From Rhizodiscina lignyota (taxonomy: Eukaryota): 64,000 nucleotides of DNA. How positions within the stretch are numbered: the stretch's first letter is position 1; every line of letters starts with the position of its first letter. The position numbers and the translations under genes are program-made. Below, piece by piece: positions 42,323 through 46,985 of the stretch. Location of the stretch: contig ML978123.1 of NCBI GenBank assembly GCA_010015805.1, positions 992,001 to 1,056,000 on the forward strand, in the 5' to 3' direction. The notes below the pieces were generated by a model. The model saw nothing but the letters and a program-made list of their open reading frames with translations. It was not told where the DNA came from and did no database searches.

Positions 42323-44565
42323 TCACGGAAGTTCAGTCGCCTGAACGCTAGGAAAGCTCGAATGCCGGACATTCTTGATTCCATTCGACAAGGAGAATCG
42401 TCCTGAAAGCTTATCTGTACTCTTGTTGCCGAACGAGAACGGTGGTGGTGTTGGGACCGGGTTCACGTAGATCGCGCTGTCCGACGACGACGGGTCGGGA
42501 GCAGAGACGGGTTGCCACTCGACTCTGATGGGCTGATCTCTATTCAATTTTTGGCCGTCAAACCCTGTGAGGGGATGAGAGGTAAGCATGGTGATAGACG
42601 ACGTCTGAGTATGCCACCGGGAACTCACATAGTTCAAAGCGCAGATCGGCAGGACCAAGGACAGTTCGAATTTCGTAGTCCATGCGACTGTATTTCTTGC
42701 CGGTGCTCCACCAGTGTCTATTTTTCCTCTTAAACTTCGTGTCGTCGATACCGGCAAAGTTTGACTCGAGCTCGCACAGGACCTCAGCATCTGCACTTAG
42801 AGTATCAGCATCTTTCCGGCGAGAGACATCGGCTGAAGGAGAATACCAACCATTATTGACTTGTAAAGGAAGCAGGTTCTTGTCAAGGTTCGTGGAGATG
42901 ATACTGGTCGTGGATGACATTGTGATATCACCGGGAAGCATCTTACGACTGAACCTATGAACTATCGGTACGTCCACATTAATAGGTTCGCCCTGTATCT
43001 GTCAGTCTTTGTCTGCTCGTCCGTATGATTTACTGACTTTCTTAATGAACCAGGCAATAGCCTCATCTAGGTAATATTTGTTGTTCAACGGGTCCTTAAG
43101 CGCTTGTCGATTATAGTGCTCCGGATTTTCCTTATCATAAGGTATCCTGCAGCGGGTGCCGTATGATGCTCGAGCACAACGCCATCCGAGGACAGCTTTA
43201 CCGCTCTGAAGCTTGCGAACTCGGTCGATAACAACGCCTTTGCAGACAGCCAGTTGCGGATCCGGAGCAACATGGATTTGGATGTCACGAGCACAAGCGA
43301 ATGTACTCTTTCCGAGCGCATACCGGTCTCCCAGTCTCTTTTGAACGTATGCGGAGTTGCCGAGGCCGCCAGAAAGAACAAGGTGAGATATTGTGTCTCT
43401 TGGCCATTTCTGCTCGAACGATTGAAGTTGCTTGTCAATTTCTGCGAAAAGTCTCTGGATCTGAGAATCGAACATTCCTTGAAGCTCGTTCGAAGTAAAA
43501 GTCATCGCGCTTCTCGAGACACCGAACTGCGGATTATTGAAAGAAGAATTGAGCCCAGGGACCGGGATAGAGAACATCGGTGTCGTATCTGGAGAGCCGA
43601 AATCGCATTTCGTGCTCTGAAATTCCCGCGTCTTCATCATACTCCATGCCGCTTCGACTGGATCGATTCCAAGGTTGTACATTTCGTTCACTTGATGGAG
43701 GCGGGAATGACAGTGGTCTTCAAACTGTCTGTCGATATGTACCGAGCCAATATTCTTGCCCACGACGACATCCAGTTGTTGGAGGGTCAGAGCTCCTTTA
43801 TGGGCGCCGACGATGCGCAACACGGAGAAGTCAGTGGTGCCACCTCCAGCATCGCAGACTAGTAATGCTTCGCTTTCCTGAAAAATACCCGGTGCGTCTG
43901 AAGAAGTATGTACTGCAGCAGCTTCTGGCTCAGTAAGACCGAGGTCGATGGAATGTGTGGGATGTTGTCCATATCCCGCTCTCTCGACAATAGTTCGGAA
44001 CTTCTCCACAGTGGGATACGGTTGCCATGTTGTTGGCAGACTGAAGATAAATTCCACCATTGCGTGCTCCCAAGGCTTGTTATTTGGTAGTTCGGAACCC
44101 AACTTGAGTTGAATGTGCTGGTACAGCAGCCGCAGGTAGTCCTCGTACCATTTGTCGACTTCTTCCTGCGACCTCGGAGCATTCTCTAGGTCTCTCATTT
44201 GCGCGTCCTGAAGCACATTCGGGTCCAGGTATGTCTTGAACCATTCCCAGTAGTCCTTGTTTTCATCGTCCTTCTCTGCTTGATTCTCCGATCCGAATCC
44301 CCACGATGATGGCTGCGTCGAACCTTTCGGGTAGCAGATGATCGTTGGGACCTTGTTCTCATTTGCCTGGCCTCTGTGCGGCCATCTTGCAATCCATTTG
44401 ACGGTGTCACCTCGAGTTAGGTTGGCATACGCGACTCCGGTACCTGTTAATTATACGTCAGAGCTTGTACTCTTGTGCAATGGAATGTTTGAGAGCTTCT
44501 ACGAAGCACAGATACATACAGGTCATGCCAAAGTCTATACCGACGACGAGATCTGGTTTCTCCAT
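42323..44565 (-). CDS. Hsp70-like actin-fold ATPase (HSPA12-type, divergent), 4 exons
   Basis: MEKPDLVVGIDFGMT|CTGVAY (intron 44519-44444), IFSLPTTW, LTEPEAAAV, LLVCDAGGGTTD, LVLSGGLGNSAYV, DPQLAVCKG, RCARASYG. Further introns at ~43038-42993 and ~42629-42565. No EEVD terminus. Confidence 0.9.
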
Positions 44566-45467
44566 TTTTGCAACGGAGCGCGAGATAATTCGTTGTGAGG
44601 AATTTCAATCGCACGAAAGATCGGAGTGTATAATTTTGTACTAAATGAAAGACAGCGCGATGTTGGAGCGAGGTTACGCGCTTCACAGCCACGTGAGTGT
44701 GCAAGGCTGAACGAGGCTGGATCGCTCGCTGGGTCAGCGTCCCAACTTATCGGAGACTGTTTCACGATATGAAGGAATGGTTGGAGACAGGGGAGATCAA
44801 TCGGAATTCTTTCCTTGTCGTGTTAATTTGGCTAGATCAATATCGGTATGTCTCCATATCGATGCTACATTGAGTGGCCGCATTGTCTTTGAACGGCTCT
44901 AGAACTTGGCCCCCAACGCTAAGACTGGGGTAAGGAATACAGGAAGGAGTGAGAGGCGCAAATCTGCAATAAAAATCACAGCCATCTCGCTTCCGTTGCA
45001 GGAAGGTGCGCCGGGCGTCGATGGGCCTCCCTGGAACTCGCGCGGCTGCGTGCGTAACCTCCAACTCGTACGGCCGGTGAAAGGCTAATGTCTCGCCATT
45101 GGAGGCCCTCTGCAAAACAAGTGTGAAATTTATCCCACAAGCTAAGCAGAGCCGCAGCGTGGGTGTACCAAATCACCATTTCCGGTCCCTGCATTGCAGT
45201 TGGCAGCGCCACAATATCCAGCCTTGCGTGAGATCAACCAATCAAAATTCGACACTGACCCCCCGGCCTTCCAATTCCAGAGCAATGTAGACGGGGCGCA
45301 TCGGTGAATTTTTTTTTTAAAACTGAGTTTAGTCTCACAGCTGCTGCGGCACAGTAGGCGATGTCTTACTCTTCCCTCCGCGCAAAGCTTCGTGAGAAGT
45401 CGTTCAGCTTCATTTCAAGAGGAACACTCAACAACTTTTCATACGCAACCTCTCTTCAGATACAGTC

Positions 45468-46985
45468 ATGGTTTATCCACAGATATTTGCAACCGGCCCC
45501 GATCCAGCCTCGCCTTCCAAAGGCATAGCTTGGGTTGGAGTGGTCAGCAACTGGAGCACACCAATCGAAGGCTCAACTTACACTGGAACTTATACTGGAA
45601 CTCCGAGTGGAACAATCACAGTAAGCTATGATAAAGGACGTCACGACTCCACCACATTTGTCCTCAATGTGGCGACCTATACAACTGGGCTTTCAAGCAT
45701 AGCCCAAGGAATTAAGTTCACCTTTCCACCACCGGTAGCAGCAGCAGCAGCGACTACATCGGCCTCAATCAATACATCTGGCTCAGCCAGGACGTCCAGC
45801 ATTATAACAACGTCTCCTGCAGCACCAACAACAACAACACCAACACCAACAACATCATCACCATCACCATCATCATCATCATCATCATCGGGTAGCTCTA
45901 TCCCAAGCACGAGCTCTTCAGCATCTCCAACACGAGCTACCATTTCCCCGAACCCTATTCCTCACAATGGGAACCCGGTGTCAGGAGGAGCTGCTGCAGG
46001 AATAGCCATCGGTTGCCTGGCTGCCGGAGCCATCCTCGCGTCTCTCCTGTTCTTCCTGTTCTGTCTGCCGAAGGCCCGGAAGCGCAGGGACTATGAGCGC
46101 GCGCCGCTCGAGATGAACAATGTCCCGCCTATGAATGGTGCCAAAGGTGGCGCAACCACAACAACAACATCCAGTGGACTGGAAGGGGCGGCAGCAATTG
46201 TGGAAAACCATCTTCCGCAGACAGTCCCTGACAGAACGATCGCCGATGGTCTCTCGTCGCTAAAGACGTCGATTAGCAACCATGTCCTCAGCTACTATCA
46301 CATCGCTCCCTCCCAAGAGAAAACGTCGGCTCTGAATCTTGCCACGGTGCTAGGAAACAACACGCCTGTCTCTGTGGACAAGCTGAGTGGAATGATGATG
46401 AGCACGAGGACTCGCCCGGCAGCTATGCGGTTCACTCTTGCCTGGATCATTATCTCTCGTCTCGGTTTGGATGGCGATCCAGCAGCTACTTTCCTTCCAT
46501 GGCAATTTCTAAGCTGCGTTCAGAGCATGTCCAAGCCAGGCGGAGATGATGCTGGTAAGAAAACCATCTTCTTCATAATCGGCAATCACTGACACTTCCC
46601 AGTGCGAGCAGCCTTCCTTAGCAAATGGCGCACCATCACTGCCTACCTCTCCTCACAGAATTTCGGCCAAAACAATATTACAGACAACGACCCTCGCAAC
46701 GAACACATTGGCAAGGCTGTTGCTGACGCCGACAGTATCCTTCAGCCTTATGCAAACCCCCGGGAAGACAACGCGCAAAGGCAGCGCAATCTGGAAGAGA
46801 TCATGAAGCGGGCAGTGCGCTTTGCATATACGCTATTTGCACATCCAAGCTCCTTCAAGTTTGATTGGCAAGCCAATGCAGACAGCCTCGTGGTATTCCC
46901 GGGCATGCAGCAGGTAACGGACGAGGCTGGGGCTCCGCTCCATCCAACGAGGTCGTTTGGAGAGAAGGAGGTGGCACGTGTGTGA
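45468..46985 (+). CDS. Single-pass membrane protein: Ser/Thr-rich stalk, GxxxG TM helix, conserved-looking cytosolic domain
   Basis: TM VSGGAAAGIAIGCLAAGAILASLLFFLFCL followed by KARKRR. Intron 46555-46602 joins to FLSKWRTITAYL...RQRNLEEIMKRAVRFAYTLFAHPSSFKFDW...LVVFPGMQQVTDEAG. A possible extra 5' exon at 45361-45391 is also in phase. Confidence 0.8.
45823..45889 (+). repeat. Coding trinucleotide microsatellite (ACA/CCA/TCA) encoding the Thr/Pro/Ser stalk
   Basis: ACCAACAACAACAACACCAACACCAACAACATCATCACCATCACCATCATCATCATCATCATCATC is visible directly. Confidence 0.85.

Follow-up and report, generated by a model that had tools for sequence, protein, structure and literature searches.

A conserved head-to-head gene pair encodes an HSPA12-like ATPase and a membrane-anchored protein predicted to bind its nucleotide-binding domain

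Why does an Hsp70-like ATPase gene lie head to head with a gene whose product spans a membrane once, and do the two products work together? The question is raised by a 64,000-nucleotide stretch of the Rhizodiscina lignyota genome (the window), in which an earlier note had described such a pair on a shared promoter region of about 0.8-0.9 kb and had read the membrane protein as an exchange factor for its neighbour. We confirmed two divergent genes in positions 42323-46985, with a gap of 902 nt from ATG to ATG. Gene 1 (42323..44565, minus strand) encodes a 665-aa ATPase of the Hsp70 superfamily (HSPA12-like, DUF8340). Its start ATG lies at 44565 and its stop codon at 42323-42325, and its five exons (44565-44520, 44443-43038, 42992-42851, 42790-42629, and 42564-42323, the last including the stop) are separated by four GT..AG introns of 76, 45, 60, and 64 nt. 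Gene 2 (45468..46985, plus strand) encodes a single-pass membrane protein of 489 aa, the same sequence as database protein P0001, with a start ATG at 45468, a stop codon at 46983-46985, and two exons (45468-46554 and 46603-46985, the second including the stop) around one intron (46555-46602). The splice models were based on GT..AG sites and ortholog alignment, and in gene 1 the alignment backs the intron at 42850-42791 (60 nt) as well as the exons for the C-terminus. The 902 nt between the genes (44566..45467) are presumed to be a shared promoter.

The gene 1 protein starts with MEKPDLVVGIDFGMTCTG, contains the phosphate-2 motif CDAGGGTTD as well as SGGLGNSAYVQ, and ends in ...QATELP, and therefore lacks EEVD; the description of a protein with all nucleotide motifs and no EEVD was correct. 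Its nucleotide-binding domain (NBD; aa 1-484, 43038..44565, minus strand) carries DFGMT, WFK, TEPEAAA, CDAGGGTTD, and SGGLG, which were invariant or nearly so in alignments of 32 and 58 orthologues. The phosphate-1, phosphate-2, and adenosine motifs and the catalytic residues by which the Hsp70/actin-like ATPase superfamily is recognized are all present. When searched against the PDB, a profile of gene 1 orthologues matched the NBD of mortalin (E 1.7e-5) and DnaK (1dkg_D, E 9.1e-4), covering subdomains IIA/IIB. The Pfam HSP70 model (PF00012) scored 14.7 bits on gene 1, under the cut-off of 20.6, and 20.1 bits on a paralogue. The C-terminal region (aa 485-665, 42323..42992, minus strand) is conserved up to about ...IRVEW and then runs into a variable tail; no Pfam match was found in the C-terminal ~200 aa, and the extra part of longer Fusarium forms (P0269, P0284) also has no Pfam domain. 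A canonical Hsp70 identity was rejected on the basis of the PF00012 score below the gathering cut-off, the missing EEVD, and the lack of a Pfam substrate-binding domain. A protein database search returned 841 relatives of gene 1, for which the precomputed label is PF27033 DUF8340. In a language-model feature search of the Atlas, a chordate HSPA12A cluster was among the look-alikes (rank 28, score 0.96, 189 features). The ATPase had been called HSPA12-type; the superfamily assignment stands, and the HSPA12 label comes solely from this language-model likeness.

The N-terminal part of gene 2 (45468..45986, plus strand) consists of a variable region with weak beta strands (aa 1-89) and a Ser/Thr/Pro-rich stalk (~aa 90-173). 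It is presumed to be extracytosolic, because under the positive-inside rule the KARKRR that comes after the transmembrane (TM) helix places this part outside. The helix itself (about aa 173-200, 45987..46067, plus strand) contains GAAAGIAIG, which comprises two GxxxG motifs, and is followed by KARKRRDYER; the family consensus is GAxAGIAIGCxxAGA. The Ser/Thr stalk and GxxxG helix reported earlier are thus both seen in the sequence. The small N-terminal domain reported with them did not hold up, as it was modelled at pLDDT 43-62 only and is not conserved across the family. By eye, no cleavable signal peptide was found in the N-termini of the gene 2 protein and 18 homologues, in which 60-190 residues stand before the TM helix. 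An exhaustive HMMER search identified 1039 relatives of gene 2 at E<=0.001, among which the cytosolic domain is conserved and not the translocated part. The word-based search had matched only gene 2 itself, and its profile version, swamped by low-complexity words, gave nine matches. Some homologues carry the automatic names 'Mid2 domain-containing' or 'cell wall integrity and stress response component'.

The entire cytosolic part of gene 2 is 289 aa long, and its conserved, folded domain (aa 241-489, 46188..46982, plus strand, broken by the intron at 46555-46602) is modelled as nine helices and, after them, five short strands. The order of helices and then strands agrees with what had been described, and the size is about 250 aa and not ~220. 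The domain was modelled at pLDDT above 90 in gene 2, and a domain-only homologue at pLDDT 93.7 and pTM 0.90. The proposal that this domain is GrpE-like, to be checked by Foldseek against GrpE, was not borne out. Foldseek against the PDB returned 0 matches at E<=0.001 (best E 0.23 with the complete model, 0.30 with just the domain), and GrpE was absent from every fold search. No BAG chain appeared in the fold-search lists, although absence from such lists alone carries little weight, and MIEAP (PF16026) was never among the matches in searches with the domain. At E<=10, ten domain-only sequences matched none of the Pfam families GrpE, BAG (PF02179), MIEAP, and GIL1_IRKI_C, and the 25 families listed, out of 88, for 74 family members do not include any of the four. 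Across the gene 2 protein, these 74 members, and the ten domain-only sequences, Pfam gave just mucin or TM-segment models and scattered chance matches. PDB sequence searches with gene 2 yielded TM-segment or low-complexity matches only, and the family profile matched no GrpE chain (PF01025 family). An Atlas structural search found a plant cluster (TM 0.53 by query and 0.42 by row, 190 aligned residues), 63% of whose members carry GIL1_IRKI_C (PF24994); such a value, close to 0.5 and obtained between two predicted models, counts as weak. Judged by its model, the domain has no solved look-alike that we could find.

To survey the neighbourhood of gene 1, metagenomes were scanned with its orthologues, which gave 207 confirmed relatives and, from these, 80 retained loci. 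Wherever the flank upstream measured 2700 nt or more (39 loci), the gene 2 domain profile matched there on the opposite strand; with a flank of 1200-2699 nt it did so in 11 of 15 loci, and with <1200 nt in none of 26. It had no matches at other places in those loci. After near-identical loci were merged by hand, the head-to-head partner was present in 30 of 30 non-redundant loci; gene 1 identity across the linked loci ranged from 30 to 66%. The 64-kb window itself contains a single match to the profile. In named genomes, the best homologues of both genes were found on equal-sized contigs in all 11 judgeable pairs (10 species), and in Coniosporium the pair has adjoining locus tags, W97_02172 and W97_02173. 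The trees of the two genes were congruent (Mantel r 0.925, 35 pairs), with 0 of 2000 permutations reaching this value and a top permuted value of 0.40. Two of the checks suggested in the earlier note, the neighbourhood survey and the co-phylogeny, turned out in favour of the pair, and it is strongly supported that the two genes are one functional unit. Congruent trees are, however, expected of any two tightly linked genes, and shared regulation alone would suffice for both the strict linkage and the congruence. The genes could then be merely co-regulated neighbours on a bidirectional promoter, acting in the same process through proteins that are not in contact. Against this, every one of the 30 non-redundant loci preserves the arrangement, even where ATPase identity falls to 30%, and in Dothideomycetes gene order is shuffled within chromosomes.

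Contact between the proteins was assessed with a complex test on Patellaria atrata orthologues, P0021 and residues 240-510 of P0124, whose identity to the proteins of the window is 58% and 36%; it is this pair, and not the window's own, that was scored. The complex was predicted at ipSAE 0.76, which is 0.38 above the best control (0.38), with at least 74% of contacts shared between runs and a partner pLDDT of at least 82. Of 78 solved complexes, 51 reached the mark of the test, as did 2 of 108 pairs that were mismatched; the mismatched pairs at the mark (two or four) scored 0.34-0.59 only. The claim that gene 2 is an interaction partner of the neighbouring ATPase is supported by this prediction on the ortholog pair. 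An older version of the test was also passed by 7 of 44 blind-drawn neighbouring gene pairs, which favours co-regulation without contact, as does the finding that the interface residues of gene 2 are no more conserved than the remainder of the domain (0.472 vs 0.439; p 0.21 by permutation). On the ATPase side, conservation at the interface is higher by a narrow margin only (0.812 vs 0.741; p 0.049). Given the complex score and an invariant partner residue, H272, inside the predicted interface, we regard mere co-regulation as rather unlikely.

The predicted interface comprises, on gene 1, a lobe-I segment mapped from P0021 (aa 25-45, …TRG.T.KW.A……QANEN, 44355..44417, minus strand) and the end of a subdomain-IIB helix with the start of the hairpin (aa 288-307, REFQSTKCDFGSPDTTPMFS, 43569..43628, minus strand), which aligns to mortalin ...AEKAKCELSSSVQTD in the IIB helix/hairpin. 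The main ATPase contact of gene 2 is predicted at aa 238-275 (46179..46292, plus strand), with an LPQ..PD motif and the helix ...SISNH. This stretch includes the near-invariant D255 and H272, the sole invariant polar residue of the partner. QANEN (gene 1 aa 41-45) is the putative equivalent of DnaK 28-33. In the available part of one paper, GrpE is described as contacting DnaK at residues 28-33, at residues 51-61, and in subdomain IIB at helix 255-272 and hairpin 276-302 (PMC10825016), and in that of another, subdomain IIB is named as the target of all nucleotide-exchange factors (NEFs) (PMC4753570). The models suggest that the cytosolic domain of gene 2 most likely binds the ATPase NBD at the lobe-I loop and IIB, and such a contact would be compatible with opening or clamping of the cleft alike. 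The exchange-factor idea thus keeps its predicted contacts at NEF-used elements, while kinship to GrpE is not supported.

On balance, we read the pair as a two-gene module conserved in Pezizomycotina, in which an HSPA12-like ATPase is probably matched with a dedicated membrane-anchored partner that binds its NBD and is possibly a regulator of the nucleotide cleft. Gene 1 encodes an Hsp70-superfamily ATPase, presumably cytosolic, with intact nucleotide motifs. Gene 2 encodes a single-pass protein in which the outer part is variable and rich in Ser/Thr, the TM helix carries GxxxG, and the cytosolic domain has ~250 aa. Both are transcribed divergently off one short spacer and inherited together. 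The gene 2 domain would bridge the lobe-I loop and subdomain IIB over the nucleotide cleft. We propose that, by being bound to the NBD, it would hold the ATPase at a membrane, and that it would probably control opening of the cleft and hence nucleotide release or retention. The membrane tethering, the nucleotide-cycle control, and any role in sensing are inferred.

A bolder version of this module, which we consider unlikely, makes the gene 2 domain the founder of a new structural class of co-factors that bind the cleft of Hsp70-family proteins. Anchored in a membrane, it would serve HSPA12-like ATPases exclusively, as exchange factor or as clamp, and would be a distant homologue of the plant GIL1/IRKI C-terminal domain. 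If it were true, HSPA12-type ATPases might be paired with such partners eukaryote-wide, turning a membrane or surface cue into an ATPase switch. Somewhat less probable still is that the ATPase is a dedicated chaperone for the insertion competence or assembly of its neighbour, which would be a client and no regulator. Post-translational targeting is assisted by Hsp70-type proteins, and such aid would suit the absence of a cleavable signal peptide in 19 of 19 N-termini despite the 60-190 residues before the TM helix. However, the predicted contact joins a folded cytosolic domain to the NBD cleft and not an unfolded segment to a substrate-binding domain, the conserved part of the gene 2 family is the cytosolic domain and not the translocated part, and gene 1 has no substrate-binding domain recognisable by Pfam. 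It is highly improbable that the domain has a GrpE/MIEAP-like fold, homologous to known exchange-factor architecture, and makes gene 2 a receptor-like exchange factor, since the order of helices and short strands, the GrpE-like predicted NBD footprint, and the Atlas match to the plant GIL1_IRKI_C cluster are outweighed by the lack of a Foldseek match in the PDB at E<=0.001 and of a Pfam match to GrpE, BAG, MIEAP, or GIL1_IRKI_C, the family profile that matched no GrpE chain in PDB sequences, and the absence from the gene 2 model of the long coiled-coil stalk borne by GrpE, which acts as a dimer.

We compared the module of ATPase and cleft-binding partner with known systems. As in GrpE-DnaK, the predicted footprint covers a lobe-I loop and the IIB helix and hairpin, which are GrpE-contacted elements; unlike GrpE, gene 2 has no sequence or fold match, no modelled coiled-coil dimer stalk, and a membrane anchor, and its exchange role is putative. 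RodZ is a bacterial single-pass membrane protein whose cytosolic HTH domain ties the filament-forming actin-fold ATPase MreB to the membrane. It resembles gene 2 by analogy only, in that the cytosolic domain of a single-pass protein binds (for gene 2, is predicted to bind) an actin-fold ATPase, whereas RodZ-MreB is bacterial, has an unrelated HTH fold, and involves an ATPase that forms filaments. The fungal cell-wall sensors Mid2/Wsc share the Ser/Thr-rich stalk and single TM helix, but gene 2 has no signal peptide or WSC domain, and its cytosolic part is a 250-aa folded domain and not a short tail. A Mid2/Wsc identity was rejected, as the likeness is one of architecture only and the Pfam matches are limited to mucin and TM-segment models. 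In working principle, the nearest known architecture is Snl1, which the available parts of two papers describe as a yeast exchange factor for Hsp70 that has a BAG domain and is anchored in the ER membrane (PMC3962485; PMC4753570). Snl1 has a single TM anchor, and its cytosolic domain binds the NBD of an Hsp70-type protein, as predicted for gene 2, but this domain is a three-helix BAG bundle that serves canonical Ssa/Ssb. The gene 2 domain, in contrast, has ~250 aa, nine helices and five strands, and no BAG match, and the gene adjoins that of its own atypical ATPase and encodes a long Ser/Thr-rich outer part. Like the atypical animal Hsp70s HSPA12A/B, gene 1 combines a divergent Hsp70 NBD with the absence of both EEVD and a canonical substrate-binding lid; membership in the HSPA12 group is suggested by the Atlas features. 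HspA12 function is called "presently unknown" in the available part of a 2026 review (PMC13580251), and our literature search found no description of a dedicated HSPA12 partner. Among named domains, only the plant GIL1/IRKI C-terminal domain (PF24994; DUF641 proteins such as COST1) resembles the gene 2 domain in structure, with a weak TM and no sequence-level match. In the part of a further paper that was available, the DUF641 protein COST1 is described as stimulating the NTPase RHD3 (PMC13189119).

The literature search found no description of the gene 1/gene 2 pair, fungal HSPA12 included, and nothing on DUF8340/PF27033, on PF24994, on HSPA12 with Mieap, or on GIL1, IRKI, and MIEAP together. 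HSPA12-type Hsp70s are widespread, and the module supplies an invariably linked partner predicted to bind, predicted interface residues, and a membrane address, so that binding, nucleotide exchange, and localisation become directly testable. If the gene 2 domain opens or clamps the cleft, the factors that converge on subdomain IIB, which are structurally unrelated to one another, would be joined by one with a new fold, and two large fungal families of 'hypothetical proteins' would be given a role.

The intergenic spacer contains CACGTG (44690-44695), followed by GCAAGGCTGA/CGAGGCTGG at 44701-44720. Among 38 non-redundant intergenic regions, the 7-mer AGGCTGA was present in 27, compared with a maximum of 16 across 20 shuffles.

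The window holds two real genes that diverge from each other, with 902 nt between the two start codons (ATG to ATG), and the earlier note described them correctly in essentials. Gene 1, which encodes an Hsp70-superfamily ATPase of 665 aa, lies on the minus strand, starting at 44565 and stopping at 42323-42325. Reading of the sequence and comparison with orthologues gave five exons (44565-44520, 44443-43038, 42992-42851, 42790-42629, and 42564-42323), separated by four introns of 76, 45, 60, and 64 nt, all GT..AG. Gene 2, which encodes a single-pass membrane protein of 489 aa (the partner), lies on the plus strand in exons 45468-46554 and 46603-46985, and its product is 100% identical to the database protein P0001. 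Both proteins are on record for Rhizodiscina lignyota. The public model of gene 1, P0002 (614 aa), rightly drops the 60-nt intron and splices out a further 153 nt (43095-43247, minus strand). The 51 aa lost in this way (VCKGVV...QALK) form the end of the nucleotide-binding domain (NBD), and all orthologues keep them. The 153-nt intron is probably spurious.

Gene 1 belongs to the Hsp70/actin-fold family, carrying the motifs DFGMT, WFK, TEPEAAA, CDAGGGTTD, and SGGLGNSAYVQ, which were invariant or nearly so in orthologue sets of 32 and 58. The Pfam HSP70 model scored 14.7 bits on gene 1, below its cut-off of 20.6, and the orthologue profile matched two solved NBDs, that of mortalin at E 1.7e-5 and that of DnaK at E 9.1e-4. 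The protein has no EEVD, and no Pfam family matched its last ~180 residues. Of the 841 relatives returned by a word-based search, the top 120 were 50-89% identical and came from Dothideomycetes, Leotiomycetes, and lichen-forming fungi. The precomputed label PF27033 (DUF8340 in the Atlas, our source of look-alike clusters) is attached to some relatives. The label "HSPA12-type" is based solely on an Atlas look-alike, a chordate HSPA12A cluster (score 0.96, rank 28). In the accessible portion of a 2026 review, the function of HspA12 is described as "presently unknown" (PMC13580251).

The N-terminal part of the gene-2 protein is poorly modelled (pLDDT 43-62). After it come a Ser/Thr/Pro-rich stretch, a transmembrane (TM) helix at aa 173-199 containing GAAAGIAIG, the basic cluster KARKRRDYER, a ~40-residue linker, and a cytosolic domain at aa 241-489, for which pLDDT exceeds 90. 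By exhaustive HMMER search the protein has 1039 relatives at E<=0.001, falling to 487 at a cut-off of 1e-10 and 76 at 1e-30. Every named relative looked up was "hypothetical" or auto-named; they came from Dothideomycetes, Sordariomycetes (Fusarium, Colletotrichum, Xylariales), Eurotiomycetes (Fonsecaea), and lichens. Conservation was confined to the TM helix and cytosolic domain, with H272 and L343 invariant and D255, I269, Y277, P344, and W371 among the near-invariant residues. Across P0001 and 18 homologues, 60-190 residues precede the sole TM helix, and no cleavable signal peptide was seen by eye in these 19 N-termini. The basic residues that follow the TM helix make an N-out, C-in topology likely. 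The gene-2 intron (46555-46602), within the cytosolic domain, is shared in position (about 135-140 in the profile) by most metagenome loci encoding gene-1 relatives, and the domain is a single uninterrupted ORF in five (L004, L033, L050, L062, and L071). Two Fusarium oxysporum relatives, P0269 (677 aa) and P0284 (732 aa), have about 320 additional C-terminal residues with no Pfam match, which could be a genuine extension or a merged gene model.

The strongest result of the analysis is the strict head-to-head linkage of the two genes. We scanned metagenome contigs with the gene-1 orthologue alignment (434 pattern matches, 207 confirmed), kept the best 80 of the 207 loci, and ran a gene-2 cytosolic-domain profile against their six-frame ORFs. 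The partner domain was present in 39/39 loci with an upstream flank of at least 2700 nt (30/30 after near-identical loci were merged by hand), in 11/15 with 1200-2699 nt, and in 0/26 with less than 1200 nt; in each of the four misses of the middle class the flank was under 1500 nt, too short to reach the domain. All matches were on the opposite strand upstream of the ATPase gene, with 301-1566 nt between the end of the matched ORF and the beginning of the ATPase match, and none occurred elsewhere in the 80 loci. The linked ATPases are 30-66% identical to that of the window, and the pairing is therefore older than deep divergences and than at least one duplication event. In named genomes, partner and ATPase homologues were on contigs of equal length, apparently the same contig, in all 11 pairs that could be judged (10 species); the count excludes six more named gene-2 homologues whose species had no entry among the best 120 gene-1 relatives. 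Chromosomes in this fungal class (Dothideomycetes) keep their gene content but not their gene order, so same-contig evidence alone is weak but retained adjacency is notable. The pair has adjacent locus tags in Coniosporium (W97_02172/W97_02173). Patellaria atrata has two pairs, P0026/P0144 and P0021/P0124, on separate contigs (1,828,131 and 735,242 long), which suggests that the module was duplicated as one unit.

The two genes are also co-inherited. For the window and 34 non-redundant loci (leaving out near-duplicates and L002, L032, and L060, where the domain is partial), a tree of the partner domain and one of the main ATPase exon gave the same clades. The Mantel r was 0.925, a value reached by 0/2000 label permutations (top permuted value 0.40), and the partner evolved ~1.6 times faster than the ATPase. 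Since linked genes have a common history, this congruence shows the absence of partner swapping and is not proof of co-evolution. In the intergenic region a promoter word recurs: the 7-mer AGGCTGA, often as GTGCCGCAAGGCTGAG, occurred in 27/38 non-redundant regions (spanning loci L004-L076) versus at most 16 in any of 20 shuffles, mostly 230-500 nt ahead of the exon-2 match of the ATPase. The window has it as GCAAGGCTGA and CGAGGCTGG next to an E-box CACGTG, all within 44690-44720.

A direct complex of ATPase and partner across the nucleotide cleft is predicted. Modelled from the P. atrata orthologues P0021 (657 aa) and P0124 (residues 240-510) without use of the supplied alignments, the pair passed the complex test, with an ipSAE of 0.76 versus 0.38 for the best control; the mark was reached by 51/78 solved complexes and 2/108 mismatched pairs. 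At least 74% of contacts agreed between runs, and partner pLDDT was at least 82. The partner has no solved look-alike and hence no similar complex has been solved, making model recall of a known complex unlikely. Mapped to the window proteins, the predicted interface comprises aa 238-275 (including D255 and H272), 418-428, and 469-489 of the partner, and aa 25-45, 288-307 (REFQSTKCDFGSPDTTPMFS), R326, and T330 of the ATPase. The first ATPase segment includes QANEN, which would correspond to the DnaK 28-33 loop region. Residues 288-307 align to mortalin ...AEKAKCELSSSVQTD, the end of the helix of NBD subdomain IIB and the start of its hairpin. In the sections consulted, the DnaK contacts of GrpE are given as 28-33, 51-61, the IIB helix 255-272, and the hairpin 276-302 (PMC10825016), and a review names subdomain IIB as the target of every exchange factor, despite their unrelated folds (PMC4753570). 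Counting against an exchange-factor footprint, conservation at the interface did not clearly exceed that of the remaining residues (partner p 0.21, ATPase p 0.049).

The earlier note had also called the cytosolic domain GrpE/MIEAP-like, a likeness that our searches did not support. Searches with the whole gene-2 model and with the domain-only homologue P0144 (pLDDT 93.7, pTM 0.90) found nothing at E<=0.001 among 350,542 PDB chains with Foldseek (best 0.23 and 0.30); no Pfam family or PDB sequence matched the domain, and MIEAP was absent from all domain search results. GrpE is nearest to the partner in its predicted footprint on the ATPase, and the nearest known architecture is that of Snl1, described in the available part of PMC3962485 as an ER-anchored BAG-domain exchange factor of yeast. 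The Mid2/Wsc sensors resemble gene 2 in outer layout only. We found no description of the pair in the literature searched, with subscription journals outside its coverage.

The earlier note's idea that gene 2 acts like an exchange factor beside its own Hsp70 is still live. The partner would tether the ATPase to a membrane and may control the opening of the cleft, acting as exchange factor or clamp. Two partner molecules might pair through the conserved GxxxG helix, and a sensing role for the variable outer part is speculative.

The single named look-alike of the cytosolic domain was a plant cluster, 63% of whose members have GIL1_IRKI_C, at TM 0.53 by query and 0.42 by row over 190 residues, a lead rather than a test. 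According to the portion of PMC13189119 available, the RHD3 GTPase is stimulated by COST1, a DUF641 protein, a hint that the gene-2 domain type may regulate NTPases more widely. Both proteins, ATPase and cytosolic domain, have plant structural look-alikes in the Atlas, that of the ATPase being a Streptophyta Hsp70-like cluster (TM 0.72) in which 15% carry DUF8340.
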